From Halobacteriota archaeon (GTDB taxonomy: Archaea > Halobacteriota > Halobacteria > Halobacteriales > Haloferacaceae), in the NCBI GenBank assembly GCA_051747545.1, contig JBNJGG010000034.1:1-20579 (forward strand): a stretch of DNA of 20,579 nucleotides, given 5' to 3'. Every line of letters starts with the position of its first letter. Positions within the stretch are counted from its first letter, which is position 1. Positions 4,210 to 16,579 of this stretch are shown here, one piece after another. The translations under genes were made by a program, and so were the position numbers. Below the pieces are notes generated by a model. It made no database searches, was not told the DNA's origin, and saw only the letters and a list, made by a program, of their open reading frames with translations.

Positions 4210-5292
4210 ATGCAGCGGGCTGCCCCGCAAGAGTTTCACCGCGTTCTCTCCTCGATGTGTACGGAGCCCCACCCCGTCGCCAGCGAGGCCGCGACGCGGT
4301 TTATGGCTACGAATCCAGGGGACCCGGAAACGTATCAGGAAGTCGCCGCGTTGGAAGCCGAAGCAGTGGAACTGCTCGGTGAGATGACCGGGCTTTCGAA
4401 CCCGGCAGGCTACGTCGCCAGCGGTGGAACCGAATCGAACATTCAGGCGATTAGAGCCGCTCGCAACCGTAGTGACACCGACCGGCCGAACGTGGTCGCC
4501 CCCGATAGCGTCCACTTCAGCTTCCAGAAGGCTGCGGAGGTGCTAGACGTCGAGTTACGGCTCGTACCGGTCGCAGACGACCTTCGCGCGGACCCCCACG
4601 CGATGGCCGACCGAATCGACGACGACACGATTTTACTCGTCGGAATCGCGGGTACCACGGAGTACGGACGTGTCGACCCGATTCCGGCGCTGTCCGACCT
4701 CGCGGCCGACGCCGGGGCGTTCTTCCACGTCGACGCCGCGTGGGGTGGGTTCGCACTCCCGTTTACCGACCACGAGTGGCATTTCGGTCACGCAGAGATA
4801 GATTCTATGACTATCGACCCGCACAAGCTCGGCCGTGCCGTCGTCCCCGCGGGTGGCTTTCTCGCCCGCGAACGGGCCACGTTGGACGCTCTCGCCGTGG
4901 ACACGCCGTATCTCGAATCGACGTCGCAAGCGACGTTGACCGGCACTCGGAGCGGAGCCGGCGTCGCCAGCGCTCACGCCGCGTTGACGGCCCTGTGGCC
5001 GGACGAGTATCGCTCGCAATTCGAGCGTGGACAGGCCAACGCGACCTGGCTCGCCACGGCGCTCGATGCTCGCGGCTTCGACGTCGTCGACCCGGTGTTG
5101 CCTCTCGTCGCCGCCTCGCTCCCAGACGACCTATTCGACGCCCTCCGGGCTCGGGGGTGGCGACTGTCTCGAACCGAGGCGGGCGAACTGCGTGTGGTCT
5201 GCATGCCACACGTCACCCGCGAGTCGCTCTCGGCGTTCGTCTCCGACATCGACGCGCTTCGGAGCGCCGTAGACGGCTTCGAATCGAGTTAA
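4210..5292 (+). CDS. mfnA: PLP-dependent group II decarboxylase, archaeal MfnA type (L-tyrosine/L-aspartate decarboxylase)
   Basis: 360 aa. It carries [13 protein letters not shown] (the MfnA ILSSMCT.PHP signature), [14 protein letters not shown], and the PLP-lysine motif TIDPHKLG. Confidence 0.75.
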
Positions 5293-5415
5293 TCACCATT
5301 CCGTTTCGAGACGCGCCCGTTCGCTTGACAACCGCCTAACTATCAGTTCAAAACCATCTTTGCCACTCCGGCCGGAACCTGAACGTTTACGTCGTCACCG
5401 CGGAGAGTAGCCTGT

Positions 5416-5976
5416 GTGTCCCCCGCCGTCTCGCTCCTCCTGGCCGGGTCGGGTGTCTGGCCGGAGTTCGCGTGGCTCGAAGGTCTCGTCCACACCGCGA
5501 CCGGTTGGGTCGGTCTCGTCATCATCTTCGTTTACTCGTTTCTCATCGCGTTTGCGCTTCCCGGCGTGAGTGAAGTCGTCCTCCTCGCACCGCTCAACCT
5601 CGGCGTTCCTCAGTCGGTGACGACGGCGCTCATCATCGTTACCAGCGGGGTCGGCAAGGCCGCCGGGAGCGTGTTCGCGTTCCACATTGGCCAGGAGGCG
5701 AAAGACTCCGGCTACATCATCGGACTGCTGCGGCGCTCACGGTTCGATATCATCGGCTGGTCGCAACGCCAGACCGTCCAGGTCGCTCAGCGCTACGGCT
5801 ACGCGGGGCTCGCACTCGCACTTTGCGTCCCCGGCTTCCCCGACACGCTGTCGATTTACGCCTTCGCCGTCCTCGAAGAGGACTACTTCAAGTTCGCGCT
5901 GTCGACGTTCGTCGGGAGCGTCGGTCGGTTGCTGGTGTGGTTGGCCGGTGGGCAGGCCATCCTGTTCTTGTTGTAG
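5416..5976 (+). CDS. YqaA/DedA (SNARE-associated)-family small integral membrane protein
   Basis: A GTG start. It has hydrophobic helices and the family-typical FALPGVSEVVLLAPLNLG stretch, and is about 186 aa. Confidence 0.6.
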   Translation: MSPAVSLLLAGSGVWPEFAWLEGLVHTATGWVGLVIIFVYSFLIAFALPGVSEVVLLAPLNLGVPQSVTTALIIVTSGVGKAAGSVFAFHIGQEAKDSGYIIGLLRRSRFDIIGWSQRQTVQVAQRYGYAGLALALCVPGFPDTLSIYAFAVLEEDYFKFALSTFVGSVGRLLVWLAGGQAILFLL

Positions 5977-10344: not shown

Positions 10345-10356
10345 TTGGGTGTGTAA

Positions 10357-10365
10357 TTTTTTATA
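10357..10365 (+). promoter_or_regulatory. Strong archaeal TATA box (TTTTTTATA) for the surface-protein operon
   Basis: The most AT-rich 9-mer in the window. It lies about 65 nt upstream of the ATG at 10430. Confidence 0.5.
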
Positions 10366-10368
10366 CCG

Positions 10369-10411
10369 GTGTCGGGAACAATCGGCAACCACCGGGCAGG
10401 TGTCCCGACAC
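10369..10411 (+). promoter_or_regulatory. Inverted repeat GTGTCGGGA...(25 nt)...TCCCGACAC spanning the predicted TSS/5'UTR
   Basis: A 9-bp perfect stem read from the sequence. It could be a 5'UTR hairpin or a DNA operator overlapping the TSS. Confidence 0.4.
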
Positions 10412-10429
10412 ACCGTGCCGCGCTCCCTC

Positions 10430-12178
10430 ATGAGACGGTCGCTTCACCTCGCGCTGACGTTCTCCGTGGTGGTGACGCTCGTCGCTGCCACGCCGACGGC
10501 CGTCGTCGCGGCTGGCGTCTCGGAGCCGACGCACGCGGCACTCGAAACTGCTCCCGCTGCCGACCAGAGCGGGTCGCCCTCGTTCGTCAACAACACGGTC
10601 ACGGTGACTCGCGGCGACGTCGCCGAAATCACCGTGTCGCACTCGAAGGCTGCCCGGGTCCACGTCGGCGGTCCGGGCTTCGGCTACCACCTCGAAATCG
10701 TCCTCAATGGGTCGGGAACGGACACGATTACGCTCGACACGTACAACTCCACGGGCCCGGCAGAGAGTCACGTCACCGGCGGTAACGCCACGCTTCACAC
10801 GCGCTCTCTCGACAGGCCGCTCGTCCCGTCCCGGTACCTGATGAACGTGACCGTCGACGGGGTCGAACAGGATCTGGGTACGCTCGAAATCGAGGAGCGT
10901 TCGACGGTCACGACCGCGGTATCGGTCGCTCCCGGGACGTCCGACCTGGACGAACTCGACGCCGACGAGTTGGCGGCGCTTCTCACCCACCGCGAACACG
11001 TCGCCCGAGGCGACCTGGCTGTCGTTCGACTCGACGGGAGCGGGTTGGAATCGGCGTTCGACGCCGAGGACCTCTCTGGAGGGCCGAACGCAGAGGGGAT
11101 TCGCGTGCGCTTTCGAGACACCACTCACCGCCAGAACAGAGCGCCCCGGTCGTTCGTCGCCACCGAGGAGACGAACGTGACGGTCCTCACCGAGTTCGAG
11201 GACGACGCCGTGCTCCTCGTGTGGGACACGAGCGACGTCTCGCTGTCCCGCGGCAACGTCACGTACGAAGTCGTCGCCGAGTTGGTGGCCGACCACAACG
11301 ACCTGGTCGTAGAGGACGAACTCCTCGCCCGCACGAACGTGACCGTGGTCCCCCCCTCGGTAACGCTGGAGGCAACGCCCGGGTTCGCGCTGTATCCGTG
11401 GCGCGGATCGAACCTCTCGGTCACCGGGCAGACGAACATCGCACCTGAGACGCCCCTCGACCTCCGCGCGCGCTCGACGGGACCGGACCCGTTCCTGCAG
11501 CGCGAACTCGTGACCGTCGACGGAAGCGGAAGCTTCCGGGCGCGGTTCGACTTCGGAACCGTCGAGCGCGGGACTTCCTTCCCGCTCTGGGTGCTGAACT
11601 ATCGGGACGAGTCGGTCACCACCGTCTCGCTCCCGTCGCAGGCGGCGAACCTGACGTTCCGCGACCAGCGTCTCGACGACGATGCGGTGACGCTCCGTTC
11701 GGTCAGCCTCCCGATGGACGGGTTCGTCCGAATCGAGCGTGAAGACGGCTCGACCATCGGCCAGACCGACCATCTCGTCGCTGGCGACCACGACAACGTG
11801 ACGGTGTCGCTCGACACCGCTTTGCTCTCGAACCAGACGCTCGCTGCCGTCGCCCACGTCGACCGTAATCTCGACGGCTCGTTCGACCCACGTCGCGACC
11901 CCGCGTTCGCGCCATCGGGCGTGCGCGTCGACTCGGAGGCCTTCGTCACGGTCTCCGAGTCGCCCCGACCCGCGCCATCGACGACCCCGTCGTCGTCGTC
12001 GACGGCAACGCCCACGCCGACTGCGACGCTCGAACCAACCTCCGCCCGGGCGACTGCGTACCCGGTCGTGTCTCGAACGCCGCTGGCTCCACGGACGCAG
12101 ACGCGTATGGACTTCTCTGTGCTCCTGACGATTCTGTCCCTGTTCGCGACCGGCCTGCTGCTCGCGAGGCGGCGATGA
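10430..12178 (+). CDS. Secreted, heavily N-glycosylation-sequon-rich cell-surface protein with Tat-like signal and PGF-CTERM-like C-terminal anchor
   Basis: The track ORF 10349..12178 has an implausible N-terminus. The ATG at 10430 gives MRRSLHLALTFSVVVTLVAATPTAVVAAG, a twin-arginine-type signal. There are 12 N-x-S/T sequons, a beta-rich body, a Thr/Ser/Pro linker SPRPAPSTTPSSSSTATPTPTATLEPTS, and the tail MDFSVLLTILSLFATGLLLARRR-stop. Confidence 0.7.
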   Translation: MRRSLHLALTFSVVVTLVAATPTAVVAAGVSEPTHAALETAPAADQSGSPSFVNNTVTVTRGDVAEITVSHSKAARVHVGGPGFGYHLEIVLNGSGTDTITLDTYNSTGPAESHVTGGNATLHTRSLDRPLVPSRYLMNVTVDGVEQDLGTLEIEERSTVTTAVSVAPGTSDLDELDADELAALLTHREHVARGDLAVVRLDGSGLESAFDAEDLSGGPNAEGIRVRFRDTTHRQNRAPRSFVATEETNVTVLTEFEDDAVLLVWDTSDVSLSRGNVTYEVVAELVADHNDLVVEDELLARTNVTVVPPSVTLEATPGFALYPWRGSNLSVTGQTNIAPETPLDLRARSTGPDPFLQRELVTVDGSGSFRARFDFGTVERGTSFPLWVLNYRDESVTTVSLPSQAANLTFRDQRLDDDAVTLRSVSLPMDGFVRIEREDGSTIGQTDHLVAGDHDNVTVSLDTALLSNQTLAAVAHVDRNLDGSFDPRRDPAFAPSGVRVDSEAFVTVSESPRPAPSTTPSSSSTATPTPTATLEPTSARATAYPVVSRTPLAPRTQTRMDFSVLLTILSLFATGLLLARRR

Positions 12179-13224
12179 TCTCCGAGATGAACCCGTCGGC
12201 GTTCGTGAACTTTCTCGCGGACATCTGGACGATCAACGGGTGGCGGACGACGGTCCACGAACGCGAGCAGGATGGGTGGCTCATAGCCGGTGAGCGACGT
12301 GGAAGGCGCGGCTTACTGCTCGCACTTCCGAACGCCGACCAGCGGGTGACCGGCCAGCACCTCCAGCGGTTCGTCTCGACCTGCGCAGAGCGGAACGTGA
12401 ACCACCCCGTCGTCGCGACTCGGGGGACCTTCAGCGACGATGCCGAGCGAATCGCCGCCGCAAACGGGGTCCACGTCATCACCTCGGAGGACGTCTCTAA
12501 CACGGTGAAGGTGGGCGGGTTCGAGGAGATTCTGGAACAGCACTCCGACCAGAAGAGTTCTGCCGAAGGGATTGCGTCGGTAGTTGCGTCGCTCCGTCGC
12601 GTCCTGCCGAACGTCGCCGACGCGAGTGCTGTCCTCCGGCGGGTCGGGACCGCACGCTCTCCGGGCGGCCTCGACCGCTCGAAGCTCACGCGGGTGGCGG
12701 CACTCGTCTTCGTCGTCGTCCTCGGGGTCGGCGGCACCGTCGCCCCCGGTCTGGCCATCCCCAGCGTGAGCGTCCCCGGTTCGTCGTCTGACGACATCGC
12801 CGTGTCGGCCGTTTCGGCGACCGGCGTCGCTGACGCCTCGCTGGAGGTGGCGTGGCGTGCACGCACCGGCGCGACGGTCACCACCGGAAACGACACGACG
12901 TACGCCGCCCCGACCGGCGAACAGTTCGTCGTCCTCCACCTCGACGTCACGAACACCGGGTCGACGCCGACGACGCTCGATGCCGATCAGGTGCTCGTCG
13001 AATCCGAGGGTCAGCGATACGCACACCAACCCCTCCAGGGCGTCTCCGGGTTCGAAGTGGGAATCCTCGACCCGAACGAGTCGACGTCGGCGTGGCTCGC
13101 GTTCTCTGTCCCGAGAGCGTCGACCAGCGCGACGGTCCTCGTCCATCCAACGGACTCCTCTTCGCGACCCAGCGTCAGGTTCGTCCACGACCACTCGGTC
13201 TCGGCGAGCGTCTCGACACGCTGA
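12175..13224 (+). CDS. Membrane protein with three parts: N-terminal cytoplasmic Mrr-type restriction-endonuclease-fold domain, single TM helix, extracellular DUF4352-like beta-sandwich domain
   Basis: The start overlaps the upstream stop (ATGA at 12175-12178). Residues ~10-110 (FVNFLADIWTINGWRTTVHEREQDGWLIAGE...VVATRGTFSDDAERIAAANGVHVITSEDV) follow the Mrr_cat topology. The TM helix is LTRVAALVFVVVLGVGGTVAPGLAI, preceded by the basic RSKLTR. The C-terminal ~110 aa (QFVVLHLDVTNTGSTPTTLDADQVLVESEGQRYAHQ...SAWLAFSVP) looks like DUF4352. Confidence 0.6.
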   Translation: MISEMNPSAFVNFLADIWTINGWRTTVHEREQDGWLIAGERRGRRGLLLALPNADQRVTGQHLQRFVSTCAERNVNHPVVATRGTFSDDAERIAAANGVHVITSEDVSNTVKVGGFEEILEQHSDQKSSAEGIASVVASLRRVLPNVADASAVLRRVGTARSPGGLDRSKLTRVAALVFVVVLGVGGTVAPGLAIPSVSVPGSSSDDIAVSAVSATGVADASLEVAWRARTGATVTTGNDTTYAAPTGEQFVVLHLDVTNTGSTPTTLDADQVLVESEGQRYAHQPLQGVSGFEVGILDPNESTSAWLAFSVPRASTSATVLVHPTDSSSRPSVRFVHDHSVSASVSTR

Positions 13225-13478
13225 AGTGATCGGTCACCTGCGCAACCGGTCGGTCGCGGTGACGTCGCTCGCCACGTGTGGCTCTCGGGAGTCTGCTCCC
13301 GTGTTCGGTTCGTGGACCGAGCCGACAGTCCTTTGCGCGTCGGACGGCTACGACCTGGTATGAACGACGTGCCCGAGGACGCGCCGATGGGCGCGCGCCC
13401 CCGGACTCGGCCGGTCGGGAGTTCAGCCACCTGTCGGCGACCGAATCGTCCGCTAATTTCGCCGACTCACGCGGGCAG

Positions 13479-13718
13479 ATGGCCGACACAGATAGACGGA
13501 TGACCGACACAGACGACACAGATAGACGGATGACCGACACAGACGACACAGATAGACGGATGGCGGACACAGACGACACAGGTGGAGAGGCGACGGACGA
13601 GGACGCGTGGATACTCGAGGAGCCACCAATCGAACCTGGCTCGCCATCCGCCGAAAATACGCTCTTCGTCCTTCTCGGGGCCGTCATGACGTTGGTCCTC
13701 CTGTTCGGGTCCCTGTAA
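13479..13718 (+). CDS. Small (79 aa) C-terminally membrane-anchored protein built from acidic tandem repeats (MTDTDDTDRR)x3
   Basis: The track ORF 13278..13718 has an Arg-rich, unhalophilic N-terminus. The in-frame ATG at 13479 gives MADTDRRMTDTDDTDRRMTDTDDTDRRMADTDDTGGEATDEDAWILEEPPIEPGSPSAENTLFVLLGAVMTLVLLFGSL. A TAATTT element sits ~22-27 nt upstream. The gene ends 38 bp before nfeD. Confidence 0.45.
   Translation: MADTDRRMTDTDDTDRRMTDTDDTDRRMADTDDTGGEATDEDAWILEEPPIEPGSPSAENTLFVLLGAVMTLVLLFGSL
13481..13582 (+). repeat. 30-bp tandem repeat, ~3.5 copies (tgaccgacacagacgacacagatagacgga), in frame within the small CDS
   Basis: Read directly from the sequence: 13501-13530 and 13531-13560 are identical, with partial copies on both flanks. 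Confidence 0.85.
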
Positions 13719-13756: not shown

Positions 13757-14341
13757 ATGGCAGGGTGGCTCCTGGCGGTGGCGCTCCAGCTGGACCTCGT
13801 CGGCCCGGAGATGCTTCCTCTGTTGCTCATCGTCGCCGGTCTCGGGTTGTCGTTAGCCGAGGCCCTCGCACCGGGAGCGCACTTCATCGTCCTGGGCGTC
13901 GCCCTCCTGGCCGCCGGACTGGTCGGGTTGCTGTTGGGTCCGTTGGCCGGTCCCATCGTCCTCGCGGTACTCGTCCTCGTGTTCGGTGCGGCCGCTCTGT
14001 ACGGGTACCGCGAACTCGACATCTACGGCGGGAAGGGGTCCGGACGGACGAGTGACTCCGATTCGCTCCGGGGAAAGACCGGTCGGGTGACCGAACGGGT
14101 GACGCCCACGACCGGTGAAATCAAACTCGACGAGGGTGGCTTCAATCCGTACTACGTCGCTCGCTCGGTCCACGGCGAGATTCCCGTAGATGCCGAGGTC
14201 ATCGTGACCGATCCCGGTGGCGGAAACGTCGTCACCGTCGAGTCGCTCGACGCTATCGACGACGAAATCGACCGCGAACTCCGGCGGAGTCGCACGGCCG
14301 AACGAGAGCGGCAACCCGAGACCGAGTCGGGTCGGTCCTGA
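13757..14341 (+). CDS. NfeD-family (stomatin-operon partner, short form) membrane protein with C-terminal OB-fold
   Basis: 194 aa. The N-terminus has 2-3 hydrophobic helices. The C-terminal region is the NfeD beta-barrel (GKTGRVTERVTPTTGEIKLDEGGFNPYYVARSVHGEIPVDAEVIVTD). It lies immediately upstream of the SPFH gene. Confidence 0.8.
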   Translation: MAGWLLAVALQLDLVGPEMLPLLLIVAGLGLSLAEALAPGAHFIVLGVALLAAGLVGLLLGPLAGPIVLAVLVLVFGAAALYGYRELDIYGGKGSGRTSDSDSLRGKTGRVTERVTPTTGEIKLDEGGFNPYYVARSVHGEIPVDAEVIVTDPGGGNVVTVESLDAIDDEIDRELRRSRTAERERQPETESGRS

Positions 14342-14488
14342 CGTCGCTGGGTCTCGCTCGCTGTCCGTCCCGTTCTCCGCATTTGGTGGGAATTTCGGAA
14401 ATACTGTCGTTTCAGAGGCTCTCTCGCCAGCTGAAGACACACTCTCTCGGGGCGAAGCCTTATCAGAGTGACAACCTAACTGCCGCGT

Positions 14489-15739
14489 ATGGACCCCGTA
14501 CTGTTGCAGGCAGGACTCGGCATCAGCGCGTTCGCCGTGGGGTTGTTAGTCCTGTTGCTGGCTGTCGTCACCGTCTACCAGATGGTCGAAATCGTCGACG
14601 CCTACGAGAAGAAGGCGCTCACGGTGTTCGGTGAGTACCGGAAACTGTTAGAGCCGGGTATCAACTTCATCCCACCCTTCGTCTCTCGGACGTACGCCTT
14701 CGACATGCGGACGCAGACGCTCGACGTTCCCCAGCAGGAGGCCATCACGCGCGATAACTCCCCCGTGACGGCCGATGCCGTCGTCTACATCAAAGTGATG
14801 GACGCCAAGAAGGCGTTTCTCGAGGTCGACGACTACAAACGGGCCGTCTCCAATCTAGCGCAGACGACCCTCCGGGCCGTGCTGGGCGACATGGAACTCG
14901 ACGAGACGCTCAACAAGCGGCAGGAGATAAACGCTCGCATCCGCAAGGAACTCGACGAACCCACCGACGAGTGGGGCGTCCGCGTCGAATCAGTCGAGGT
15001 CCGCGAGGTGAACCCGAGCGCCGACGTTCAGCAGGCGATGGAGCAGCAAACCTCTGCGGAACGCCGTCGCCGAGCCATGATTCTCGAAGCGCAGGGTGAA
15101 CGCCGCAGTGCCGTCGAGAAGGCGGAGGGTGAAAAGCAGTCGAACATCATCCGCGCACAGGGTGAAAAGCAGTCGCAGATTCTCGAAGCGCAGGGTGACG
15201 CCATCTCGACGGTGCTTCGCGCGAAGTCTTCGGAGTCGATGGGCGAGCGAGCTATCATCGAGAAGGGCATGGAGACGCTCGAATCTATCGGGCAGGGCGA
15301 GTCGACGACGTTCGTCCTGCCGCAGGAACTGTCCTCTCTGCTCGGTCGGTACGGCAAGCAACTCACCGGGAGCGACGTACAGGAGATGGCTGGACTGGAG
15401 AGTCGGCAGTTCGACGAGGAGACTCGCGCGCTGCTCGGCCTCGACGACATCGACGAAATCCTCGGCCAGATAGACGAGGCCGCCGAGATGGACGTCGAGG
15501 AACTGGAGAAGGCGGCCCAGGCGATAAAGTCGGGCGAGAGCGTCGACATCAAGAGTTCTACGGAGGTCATCCGAGAAGCGGAGGCGGCCGACGACGAGGC
15601 TGCGGAAGCCGAGGCGTCCGTCGAGGGCGACGCGCCGCTCGAAGAAGACCGAACGGCCGCGGGGCCGTCCTCGGCCTCGCCGGGTGAAGAGTCCTCCTCG
15701 GGTGACGGCGAGATGCAGTTCGACAAGGAAGTCGAGTAA
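14489..15739 (+). CDS. SPFH/band-7 (stomatin-like) protein with long coiled-coil and acidic C-terminal tail
   Basis: 416 aa. It has an N-terminal TM helix and an SPFH core (LTVFGEYRKLLEPGINFIPPFVSRTYAFDMRTQTLDVPQQEAITRDNSPVTADAVVYIKV). After the core come the repeats EAQGERRSAVEKAEGEKQSNIIRAQGEKQSQILEAQGD. Confidence 0.88.
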   Translation: MDPVLLQAGLGISAFAVGLLVLLLAVVTVYQMVEIVDAYEKKALTVFGEYRKLLEPGINFIPPFVSRTYAFDMRTQTLDVPQQEAITRDNSPVTADAVVYIKVMDAKKAFLEVDDYKRAVSNLAQTTLRAVLGDMELDETLNKRQEINARIRKELDEPTDEWGVRVESVEVREVNPSADVQQAMEQQTSAERRRRAMILEAQGERRSAVEKAEGEKQSNIIRAQGEKQSQILEAQGDAISTVLRAKSSESMGERAIIEKGMETLESIGQGESTTFVLPQELSSLLGRYGKQLTGSDVQEMAGLESRQFDEETRALLGLDDIDEILGQIDEAAEMDVEELEKAAQAIKSGESVDIKSSTEVIREAEAADDEAAEAEASVEGDAPLEEDRTAAGPSSASPGEESSSGDGEMQFDKEVE

Positions 15740-15964: not shown

Positions 15965-16579
15965 ATGCCCGAACGAGGGGTCGACGAGGAGAAACGCGCG
16001 ACGCTTCGGCGGTTTGCCGCCCTCGGAGCGACGACCCCGCTCGTCGGCTTAGCGGGTGGCGACCGCTCTCGCAGCGACGTTCGCGACGCAATCGTCGGCT
16101 ACCTCGCAGCCACACCGGGTGCGCACTTCTCGAAAGTCCGCGACGACCTCAAGCTCGGAACCGGCGAGACTCAACACCACCTGCGTCGCCTCCTCGACGA
16201 GGGGGCCATCGAGTCCCGACGCGACGGCGATTACCGGCGATTGTTCCCCGCTGGGCGGTTCTCGCCGTTCGAACAGACGGCGCTGGGGTACCTTCGGCGT
16301 CAGACCCCACGCGGGATGCTCGTCGAATTACTCCGCAATCCCGCCGCGACGGGGACCGACCTCGCCGACGCCCTGGACGTCTCGCGTGCGACGGTGAGCA
16401 CGTACGCGGGGGAACTCGATGCCGCAGGACTTCTCTCCCGCGAGGACGGCTACGCCGTTCGAGAACCCGAGACGCTCATCACGCTCTTGCTCCGGTACGC
16501 GGAGTCCTTCGACGCCAACGTCGTTGCGTTCGCCGACGAGGCTACGGACCTCATCAGGTTCGACCCTCCCGGTGACTAA
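15965..16579 (+). CDS. Winged helix-turn-helix transcriptional regulator (two wHTH-like modules) with twin-arginine-like N-terminal segment
   Basis: 204 aa. The N-terminus is KRATLRRFAALGATTPLVGLAGG. The wHTH patterns are DAIVGYLAATPGAHFSKVRDDLKLGTGETQHHLRRLLDEGAIE and MLVELLRNPAATGTDLADALDVSRATVSTYAGELDAAGLL. Confidence 0.6.
   Translation: MPERGVDEEKRATLRRFAALGATTPLVGLAGGDRSRSDVRDAIVGYLAATPGAHFSKVRDDLKLGTGETQHHLRRLLDEGAIESRRDGDYRRLFPAGRFSPFEQTALGYLRRQTPRGMLVELLRNPAATGTDLADALDVSRATVSTYAGELDAAGLLSREDGYAVREPETLITLLLRYAESFDANVVAFADEATDLIRFDPPGD

Follow-up and report, generated by a model that had tools for sequence, protein, structure and literature searches.

The locus and its two-gene unit

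The window, meaning the whole 20,579-nucleotide stretch of DNA analysed here, has a G+C content of 65% and a gene content typical for a haloarchaeon. The segment flagged in the initial annotation, 12196-12510, encodes residues 8-112 of the ORF at 12175-13224 on the forward strand. Its 349-aa product is identical to the GenBank entry 'MAG: DUF4352 domain-containing protein [Halobacteriota archaeon]' (P0001). The start codon at 12175 is supported because the orthologue N-termini match (MISEM, MFDEM and MIREM). Three ORFs antisense to it on the reverse strand, 11946-12956, 12313-13194 and 11599-12258, have no Pfam match and were treated as high-GC artefacts.

The features of the unit, all on the forward strand, are the following.

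10357..10365, forward: TTTTTTATA, TATA-box-like element read from the sequence, putative promoter of the two-gene unit
10430..12178, forward: upstream partner gene for an S-layer-glycoprotein-like surface protein, its stop overlapping the target start (ATGA)
12175..13224, forward: whole target gene, 349-aa ORF for a predicted single-pass membrane protein
12175..12549, forward: N-terminal domain, residues 1-125, predicted cytoplasmic, with the Mrr_cat / PD-(D/E)xK fold but none of its catalytic residues
12550..12684, forward: linker, residues 126-170, variable, pLDDT 44-72
12685..12759, forward: membrane helix, residues about 171-195, from the hydropathy scan, flanked N-terminally by Arg and Lys
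12787..13194, forward: beta-sandwich ectodomain, residues about 205-340, predicted extracellular, with DUF4352 at 236-327

Pfam finds two domains only, Mrr_cat and DUF4352, each above its curated threshold, and no NCBIfam model matches the target or its orthologues. From Pfam, hydropathy and the structural model together, the protein runs from the apparently dead Mrr domain through the linker and the membrane helix to the DUF4352 ectodomain. The membrane helix, the ectodomain and the coupled surface-glycoprotein gene were absent from the initial annotation, yet they define the protein.

The word-index homologue searches returned one homologue only with the full-length query and only four short proteins with the N-domain profile. 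An exhaustive HMMER search with the N-domain profile against 1.84 billion representatives gave 514 matches at E ≤ 1e-3, of which the 150 best were retained. The clade of the target is counted below either as 27 representatives or as 31 sequences, which are these 27 and four locus-encoded orthologues. Of the 27, 23 follow a single body plan and the other four are fragments. The plan begins with about 120 residues of N-domain, continues with the linker and one membrane helix, and ends in an ectodomain of about 155-170 residues.

Among the orthologues, the linker is between about 30 and 120 residues long. In the full-length model the membrane helix spans 169-184, and the linker and the helix have low confidence whereas the N-domain is confident. 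By the positive-inside rule the topology would be N-in and C-out, with the Mrr domain in the cytoplasm and DUF4352 outside.

The ectodomain matches DUF4352 (PF11611) with an E-value of 3.2e-10 and 40.8 bits against a cutoff of 25.9, and its model is all-beta with a pLDDT of about 90. Foldseek relates it to YxkC, CD630_09570, YcdA, MPT63 and YjhA (3cfu), which are envelope proteins of Firmicutes and Actinobacteria. A clade HMM recognises the ectodomain as homologous in every full-length member (E 1e-47 to 1e-61), whereas the Pfam DUF4352 model finds it in only 13 of the 27.

The partner is a protein of about 580-609 aa with a DUF7282 domain (Pfam), a BGTF surface domain, a Ser/Thr/Pro-rich stalk and a C-terminal hydrophobic anchor. 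It scores 47.5 bits with the NCBIfam model halo_surf_dom (cutoff 40) and partially matches an ArtA-dependent S-layer glycoprotein (E 2.4e-24). Its orthologues in Halomicrococcus carry a bona fide PGF-CTERM signal. Mechanically, the partner ORF opens at a GTG at 10349, but translation more likely starts at the ATG at 10430.

A genome scan with a six-sequence alignment gave four loci. A partner orthologue lies directly upstream in seven of the eight other loci (L001, L003, L004, L005, L006, L007 and L008), and L002 has no partner gene upstream of the target orthologue. At the orthologous junctions the two genes either overlap or are joined by GGAGGTGA, which is Shine-Dalgarno-like. Both the membrane architecture and the operon thus appear highly probable.

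The fold and its catalytic positions

The Mrr_cat family (PF04471) matches residues 3-107 with an E-value of 9.8e-8 and 32.6 bits. The match is not by chance because the score exceeds the curated gathering threshold of 21, and all 27 clade members match the family. Modelled with AlphaFold2 from the 27 clade sequences, residues 1-125 reach a mean pLDDT of 95.2. The elements of the model are a helix at 7-20, strands at 24-29, 35-41 and 44-51, a helix at 60-72, a strand at 77-82, a helix at 88-96 and a strand at 100-102. Their alpha-beta-beta-beta-alpha-beta order is that of the PD-(D/E)xK core, so the model that the initial annotation had proposed to build returned the expected fold. Foldseek matches the domain model to MspJI, AF1548 and EndoMS, and sequence searches of the PDB with the single domain or the clade profile gave nothing significant.

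Among the 151 closest relatives, aligned by domain with MAFFT, 101 have E, D, D, Q and K at five columns and 50 are without this signature. The canonical text of the motifs is 'yeFEhfvADlW ... DrGIDviA ... lIQaKRY'. The sole invariant residues among the 101 canonical relatives are F13, E14, D36, D40, Q56 and K58. In the target the corresponding sites are the following.

12205..12207, forward: V11, site of the helix-1 catalytic Glu of the 'FE' motif, with D or E in 0 of 31 sequences
12274..12282, forward: G34-W35-L36, start of strand 2, site of the catalytic Asp of D-x-G-[IV]-D
12319..12330, forward: L49-A50-L51-P52, end of strand 3, where the canonical relatives have Q-x-K-R

The hhalign alignment of the target clade with the 101 canonical relatives covers all 125 columns with a probability of 99.8% and an E-value of 2.8e-30. 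In it, V11 stands opposite the helix-1 Glu, L36 opposite the catalytic Asp, L49 opposite the Gln and L51 opposite the Lys. Helix 1 and strand 3 align identically when hhalign is run against a single canonical protein (99.2%, E 3.6e-19) and in MAFFT, but the Asp then falls at G34 and at W35, respectively. The register of strand 2 is thus fixed only to within one or two residues (G34/W35/L36), yet in none of the alternatives does a catalytic position receive an acidic residue or a Lys. The profile-profile alignment suggested in the initial annotation leaves the target with none of D, E or K in the catalytic columns.

The column counts extend this to the clade. At positions 35-37, D or E occurs in 0 of 31 sequences, position 35 being aromatic in 97% and position 36 aliphatic in 84% of the clade. 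This fits the earlier reading of GWLIA as lacking the second acidic residue of the GID element. At positions 47-52, D, E or Q occurs again in 0 of 31, with Lys once and Arg three times at 51. This agrees with the earlier reading of LLLALPNAD as a triad site with neither Gln nor Lys. P52 is found in 24 of 31, where the canonical relatives have the Arg that follows the Lys. One claim failed: the Asp of DGW (D33) had been taken for a retained catalytic residue, but only 8 of 31 orthologues have an acidic residue at position 33, whose canonical counterpart is the R or G of D-R-G-I-D.

Hence the Glu, Asp and (Q/E)-x-K signature of a functional Mrr-type (Type IV) endonuclease is missing, and a DNA-modification reader domain (Mrr_N or SRA) is not found by Pfam beside Mrr_cat and DUF4352. 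The REase fold is kept and its catalytic residues are lost family-wide, in line with the concept of the inactive REase folds. The profile-profile alignment, the clade column counts, the confident model and the fold matches to the Mrr-type nucleases all favour the initial view of a Mrr-like PD-(D/E)xK domain that has degenerated catalytically. From the alignments and the model, we hold with strong confidence that the domain is catalytically dead throughout the clade. As the whole catalytic set is now hydrophobic, DNA cleavage by the family's metal-dependent mechanism should be impossible.

In some PD-(D/E)xK enzymes the catalytic residues have migrated to other elements. The domain could then still be a nuclease with a relocated or unorthodox active site, such migration being known across the superfamily (reviewed in PMC3424549). 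The loop 31-33 just before strand 2 is often acidic, and D76 and D88 are conserved. However, positions 31-33 are variable, a conserved Lys occurs nowhere in the domain, and positions 11, 35-37 and 47-52 are uniformly hydrophobic in the 31 sequences (the Lys and Arg at 51 aside). The conserved polar residues T25, D76, T82, G84, T/S87, D88 and D103 are all of the scaffold and common to the active relatives, D76, D88 and D103 being conserved there too. Judged by conservation rather than pocket geometry, a moved active site is unlikely, and we give a surviving nuclease of any kind very little credence.

The loss of the catalytic residues might otherwise mean that the N-domain is a decaying relic of no function, or that the gene is a pseudogene. 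The weaker Pfam score of the clade points the same way, 32.6 bits for the target against up to about 92 in the active relatives. Against this, the ORFs are intact across several genera, namely Halobellus, Halodesulfurarchaeum, Halanaeroarchaeum, Halomicrococcus and Halorussus. The N-domain is as conserved as the ectodomain (mean identity 35.5% versus 32.9%), and the model reaches a pLDDT of 95 from only 27 sequences. Moreover, the substitutions are specific and conserved, as with the aromatic residue at 35 and Pro at 52. Decay is accordingly a most improbable account of the domain.

RefSeq calls clade members 'restriction endonuclease', WP_049985790.1 and WP_310553307.1 for example. The name is misleading because every catalytic residue is lost and the product is a membrane protein beside a surface glycoprotein gene. 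The annotation is corrected here, and the counts of haloarchaeal restriction and defence genes are inflated by such entries.

Origin, synteny and possible function

Mrr_cat is N-terminal in 89 of the 101 canonical relatives, and membrane helices follow the domain in 50 of these 89. Active-site-intact haloarchaeal proteins share the layout of Mrr_cat, membrane helix and optional DUF4352: P0058, P0088 and P0091, all three with the DUF4352 ectodomain, and helix-bearing relatives such as P0034. They differ from the target in keeping the E-D-D-Q-K set and in lacking the S-layer-like gene as a partner, which none of P0058, P0088 and P0091 has beside it. P0058 adjoins a phage integrase. These intact proteins are probably the ancestral type. 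A second dead clade has multi-pass or archaellin-like C-terminal parts.

The neighbours in the window include the genes for MetRS, pyruvate kinase, NfeD/SPFH and similar products. In the Halobellus rufus contig (L006), in a complete chromosome (L007) and in the window alike, pyruvate kinase is followed by the pair and then by NfeD and SPFH, with DUF7312 nearby. Where the stretch shown extends far enough, as in L006, MetRS before and the HTH gene after also match the window. The proteins of L006 and L007 are 60-88% identical to those of the window for the neighbours, but only 39-47% for the partner and 37-42% for the target. The pair therefore forms a surface module that evolves fast but is inherited vertically, within a housekeeping region.

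Its history is most simply read as the loss of catalysis by a membrane-anchored Mrr nuclease, which was then fixed as an envelope gene. It would make a clean example of exaptation: the intact proteins of the same layout persist, one of them beside a phage integrase, and the dead form is inherited vertically with an S-layer-like glycoprotein.

A classical or a Type IV restriction system was rejected since the catalytic set is missing. The initial annotation had likewise denied a classical R-M system, arguing from the absence of a methyltransferase nearby. Its conclusion stands on the dead site, the housekeeping synteny and the lack of a defence match, but its argument is irrelevant. To our knowledge, the Mrr-type enzymes are modification-dependent Type IV enzymes that never need a methyltransferase, so its absence is uninformative.

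The rapid divergence of the pair, 37-47% identity against 60-88% for the neighbours, could also mark the pair as a module for antiviral defence or surface conflict, with the target serving where viruses enter, as a sensor, a decoy or a regulator. The target would then be comparable to Mpr, the mycobacterial multicopy phage resistance protein, which has the same layout and whose DUF4352 oligomerisation is needed for phage resistance (PMC9262609, PMC12596739). The integrase near the active-site-intact relatives would fit as well. However, rapid evolution is expected of any surface protein, and the surroundings of the gene are of the housekeeping kind and vertically inherited, not a defence island. 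PADLOC gives no defence-system match but a faint domain-level hit of 15 bits (E 9e-4) to the Mrr-like nuclease domain of ZorD. A nuclease effector is exactly what was lost. We consider a defence role improbable.

Our preferred explanation, to which we assign a probability of roughly 0.6 as a whole, is that the target is a haloarchaeal envelope protein with a domesticated, non-catalytic Mrr domain, coupled to a surface glycoprotein. The N-terminal cytoplasmic domain would descend from a membrane-anchored Mrr-type nuclease, with the fold kept and the catalytic set lost. The flexible linker and one membrane helix would join this dead domain to the extracellular DUF4352. The gene would be co-transcribed, and probably translationally coupled, with the S-layer-glycoprotein-like gene.

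Functionally, the ectodomain may engage the co-encoded surface glycoprotein or the envelope, and the dead fold may serve as a cytoplasmic module for docking or oligomerisation, possibly still binding nucleic acid. Such a specific role as an envelope adaptor is tentative, falling somewhat short of even odds. The repurposing for binding or signalling, first suggested in the initial annotation, is consistent with the evidence, namely the conservation of the domain on a par with the ectodomain, the uniform architecture and the conserved synteny.

Signalling could take the form of a transmembrane transducer: DUF4352 would sense a cue from the envelope or from outside, and the dead fold would either bind DNA as a membrane-tethered regulator, in the manner of ToxR and CadC, or detect a cytoplasmic ligand, as the N-domain of YqgP does with Mn2+. 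However, the metal sensing of YqgP uses acidic residues (D50) and the equivalent site here is hydrophobic. A conserved target gene or regulator partner was not seen apart from the surface glycoprotein. The domains are mostly acidic. Their net charge averages about -8 in the dead clade and the same in the active relatives, and it gives no specific sign of DNA binding because the two groups are equal. The transducer is thus unlikely.

In a bolder form of the envelope reading, the membrane-anchored Mrr nuclease became a core envelope protein of Halobacteria, and its dead fold would still grip DNA or a cytoplasmic partner and so physically join the S-layer-like glycoprotein to the cell interior. 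We rate this form as a long shot. If true, the cell surface would have a transmembrane link to the cytoplasm or the chromosome, which might play a part in DNA uptake, in cell fusion (mating) or in virus entry. The pair in any case presents an uncharacterised two-gene envelope module in Halobacteria and a genetically tractable question.

Comparison with known systems

The literature searched contains nothing on this family, its architecture or its operon, nor on DUF7282. The inactive REase folds are already known as a theme, so what is new here, as far as that literature goes, is the family, the architecture and the operon.

With the Mrr_cat (PF04471) Type IV nucleases, of which AF1548 (PDB 1y88), AspBHI and MspJI are the nearest structures, the target shares the fold and the order of the secondary structures. 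The scaffold motifs ADxW..GW.T.V, VD..vv.T.G.F(T/S)..A and v.L(I/L)D are also common to the family. The target differs in having neither the catalytic residues nor a reader of modified DNA, in its N-terminal placement on a membrane protein and in its housekeeping context.

Mpr is the only functionally studied membrane-anchored DUF4352 protein, and there DUF4352 is reported to mediate the oligomerisation (PMC9262609, PMC12596739). Mpr has the layout predicted for the target, N-in with a single membrane helix and an external DUF4352. However, Mpr is bacterial and defence-related, it lacks an Mrr fold and has only about 32 residues ahead of the membrane helix, and the two N-terminal regions are not homologous. 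Mpr also has a reported nuclease (exonuclease) activity in the membrane-helix region, to which the target has no counterpart.

The N-domain of Bacillus subtilis YqgP (PDB 6r0j) senses Mn2+ via acidic residues such as D50, whereas the corresponding site of the target is hydrophobic. YqgP is a multi-pass rhomboid protease, unlike the single helix and beta-sandwich of the target, and no sequence homology is detectable between them.

Three inactive REase folds serve as precedents. The RPB5 N-domain matches the target in fold, although the clade profile reaches only an E-value of 0.087 with RPB5 and Rpb5_N gives no Pfam hit at E ≤ 1. NA-iREase1 (PF22722) was rejected as a family for the target because its HMM finds nothing there at E ≤ 1, nor is there a NACHT gene in the window. 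Oddly, weak matches to PF22722 occur in 98 of the 101 active relatives. The third is the iREase inserts in the Orc/Cdc6-like defence ATPases (PMC10853773). These precedents belong to the conflict systems or to a polymerase, whereas the present domain belongs to a membrane protein encoded in an envelope operon.

Surroundings of the Mrr_cat-TM-DUF4352 gene with the dead nuclease domain

The target, the 349-aa protein with a catalytically dead Mrr_cat N-terminal domain (window 12175-13224, +), is flanked by the following features.

10349-12178, +: gene of the partner surface protein, mechanical ORF
13278-13718, +: small DUF7312 gene, downstream of the target
13484-13581: tandem repeat inside the DUF7312 gene, 30-bp unit, 3.3 copies, 97% match
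13757-15739, +: NfeD-like gene, then SPFH/Band 7 (stomatin-type) gene, just downstream
15965-16579: HVO_0163-type HTH regulator gene, after the SPFH/Band 7 gene

The mechanical ORF of the surface protein starts with GTG at 10349, and its N-terminal extension of 10349-10430 contains a TATA-like TTTTTTATA at 10357-10365. The in-frame ATG at 10430 begins a signal-peptide-like sequence (MRRSLHLALTFSVVV…) and, judged from the sequence, is probably the true start. At the other end, the protein's hydrophobic anchor (…TRMDFSVLLTILSLFATGLLLARRR) lacks the PGF motif. Its Halomicrococcus orthologues, at 4505-5941 of locus L004 and 4517-5935 of locus L005, carry a long poly-Thr stalk followed by the canonical PGF-CTERM (GGLPGFEA…; TIGR04126, 35.7 bits).

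The DUF7312-gene repeat codes for (DTD)RRMTDTD units. In the Halobellus rufus contig (L006) and a complete chromosome (L007), this gene lies on the upstream side of the surface-protein gene rather than after the target orthologue, and its differing placement in the window therefore indicates local rearrangement. The NfeD-like, SPFH/Band 7 and HVO_0163-type HTH genes are syntenic with the pair of partner and target in both of these loci.

Dead and intact relatives

Some members of the target's clade are named 'restriction endonuclease' in the public records: the RefSeq entries WP_049985790.1 (Halobellus rufus) and WP_310553307.1 (Halodesulfurarchaeum sp. HSR-GB), together with P0152/P0153. One partial member sits in a Nanohaloarchaea MAG bin, a placement that could result from mis-binning or transfer.

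Mrr-like N-terminal domains without any catalytic residue also make up a second clade, which comprises P0028, P0030, P0032, P0033, P0036, P0037, P0052, P0074, P0075, P0079, P0084, P0087, P0100, P0107, P0111, P0114, P0122, P0135 and P0142. Their C-terminal parts differ, with 2-4 membrane helices, archaellin-like (PF01917) domains or bacterial PH domains. Catalysis may have been lost more than once among the membrane-linked Mrr domains.

The active site is intact in three Mrr_cat-TM-DUF4352 proteins from hypersaline metagenomes, P0058, P0088 and P0091 (loci L012-L015), which may be membrane-anchored nucleases. The P0058 gene follows a conserved 59-aa ORF and has a phage integrase beside it.

Comparison with known inactive folds

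The Pfam model NA-iREase1 ('NACHT-associated inactive restriction endonuclease 1') weakly matches 98 of the 101 relatives with the intact E-D-D-Q-K signature (alignment A7), and does not match the truly inactive target. Inactivity is not predictable from a match to this model.

When the dead-clade profile (A3) is compared with PDB sequences, its top match other than designed proteins is the RPB5 N-terminal domain, spanning target residues ~36-93 at a non-significant E of 0.087. This domain is an inactive REase fold too, and was also matched in the fold search. Within the match, both have Pro straight after strand 3 (…MFVFFPE… and …LILVLPG…). The match may be convergence.
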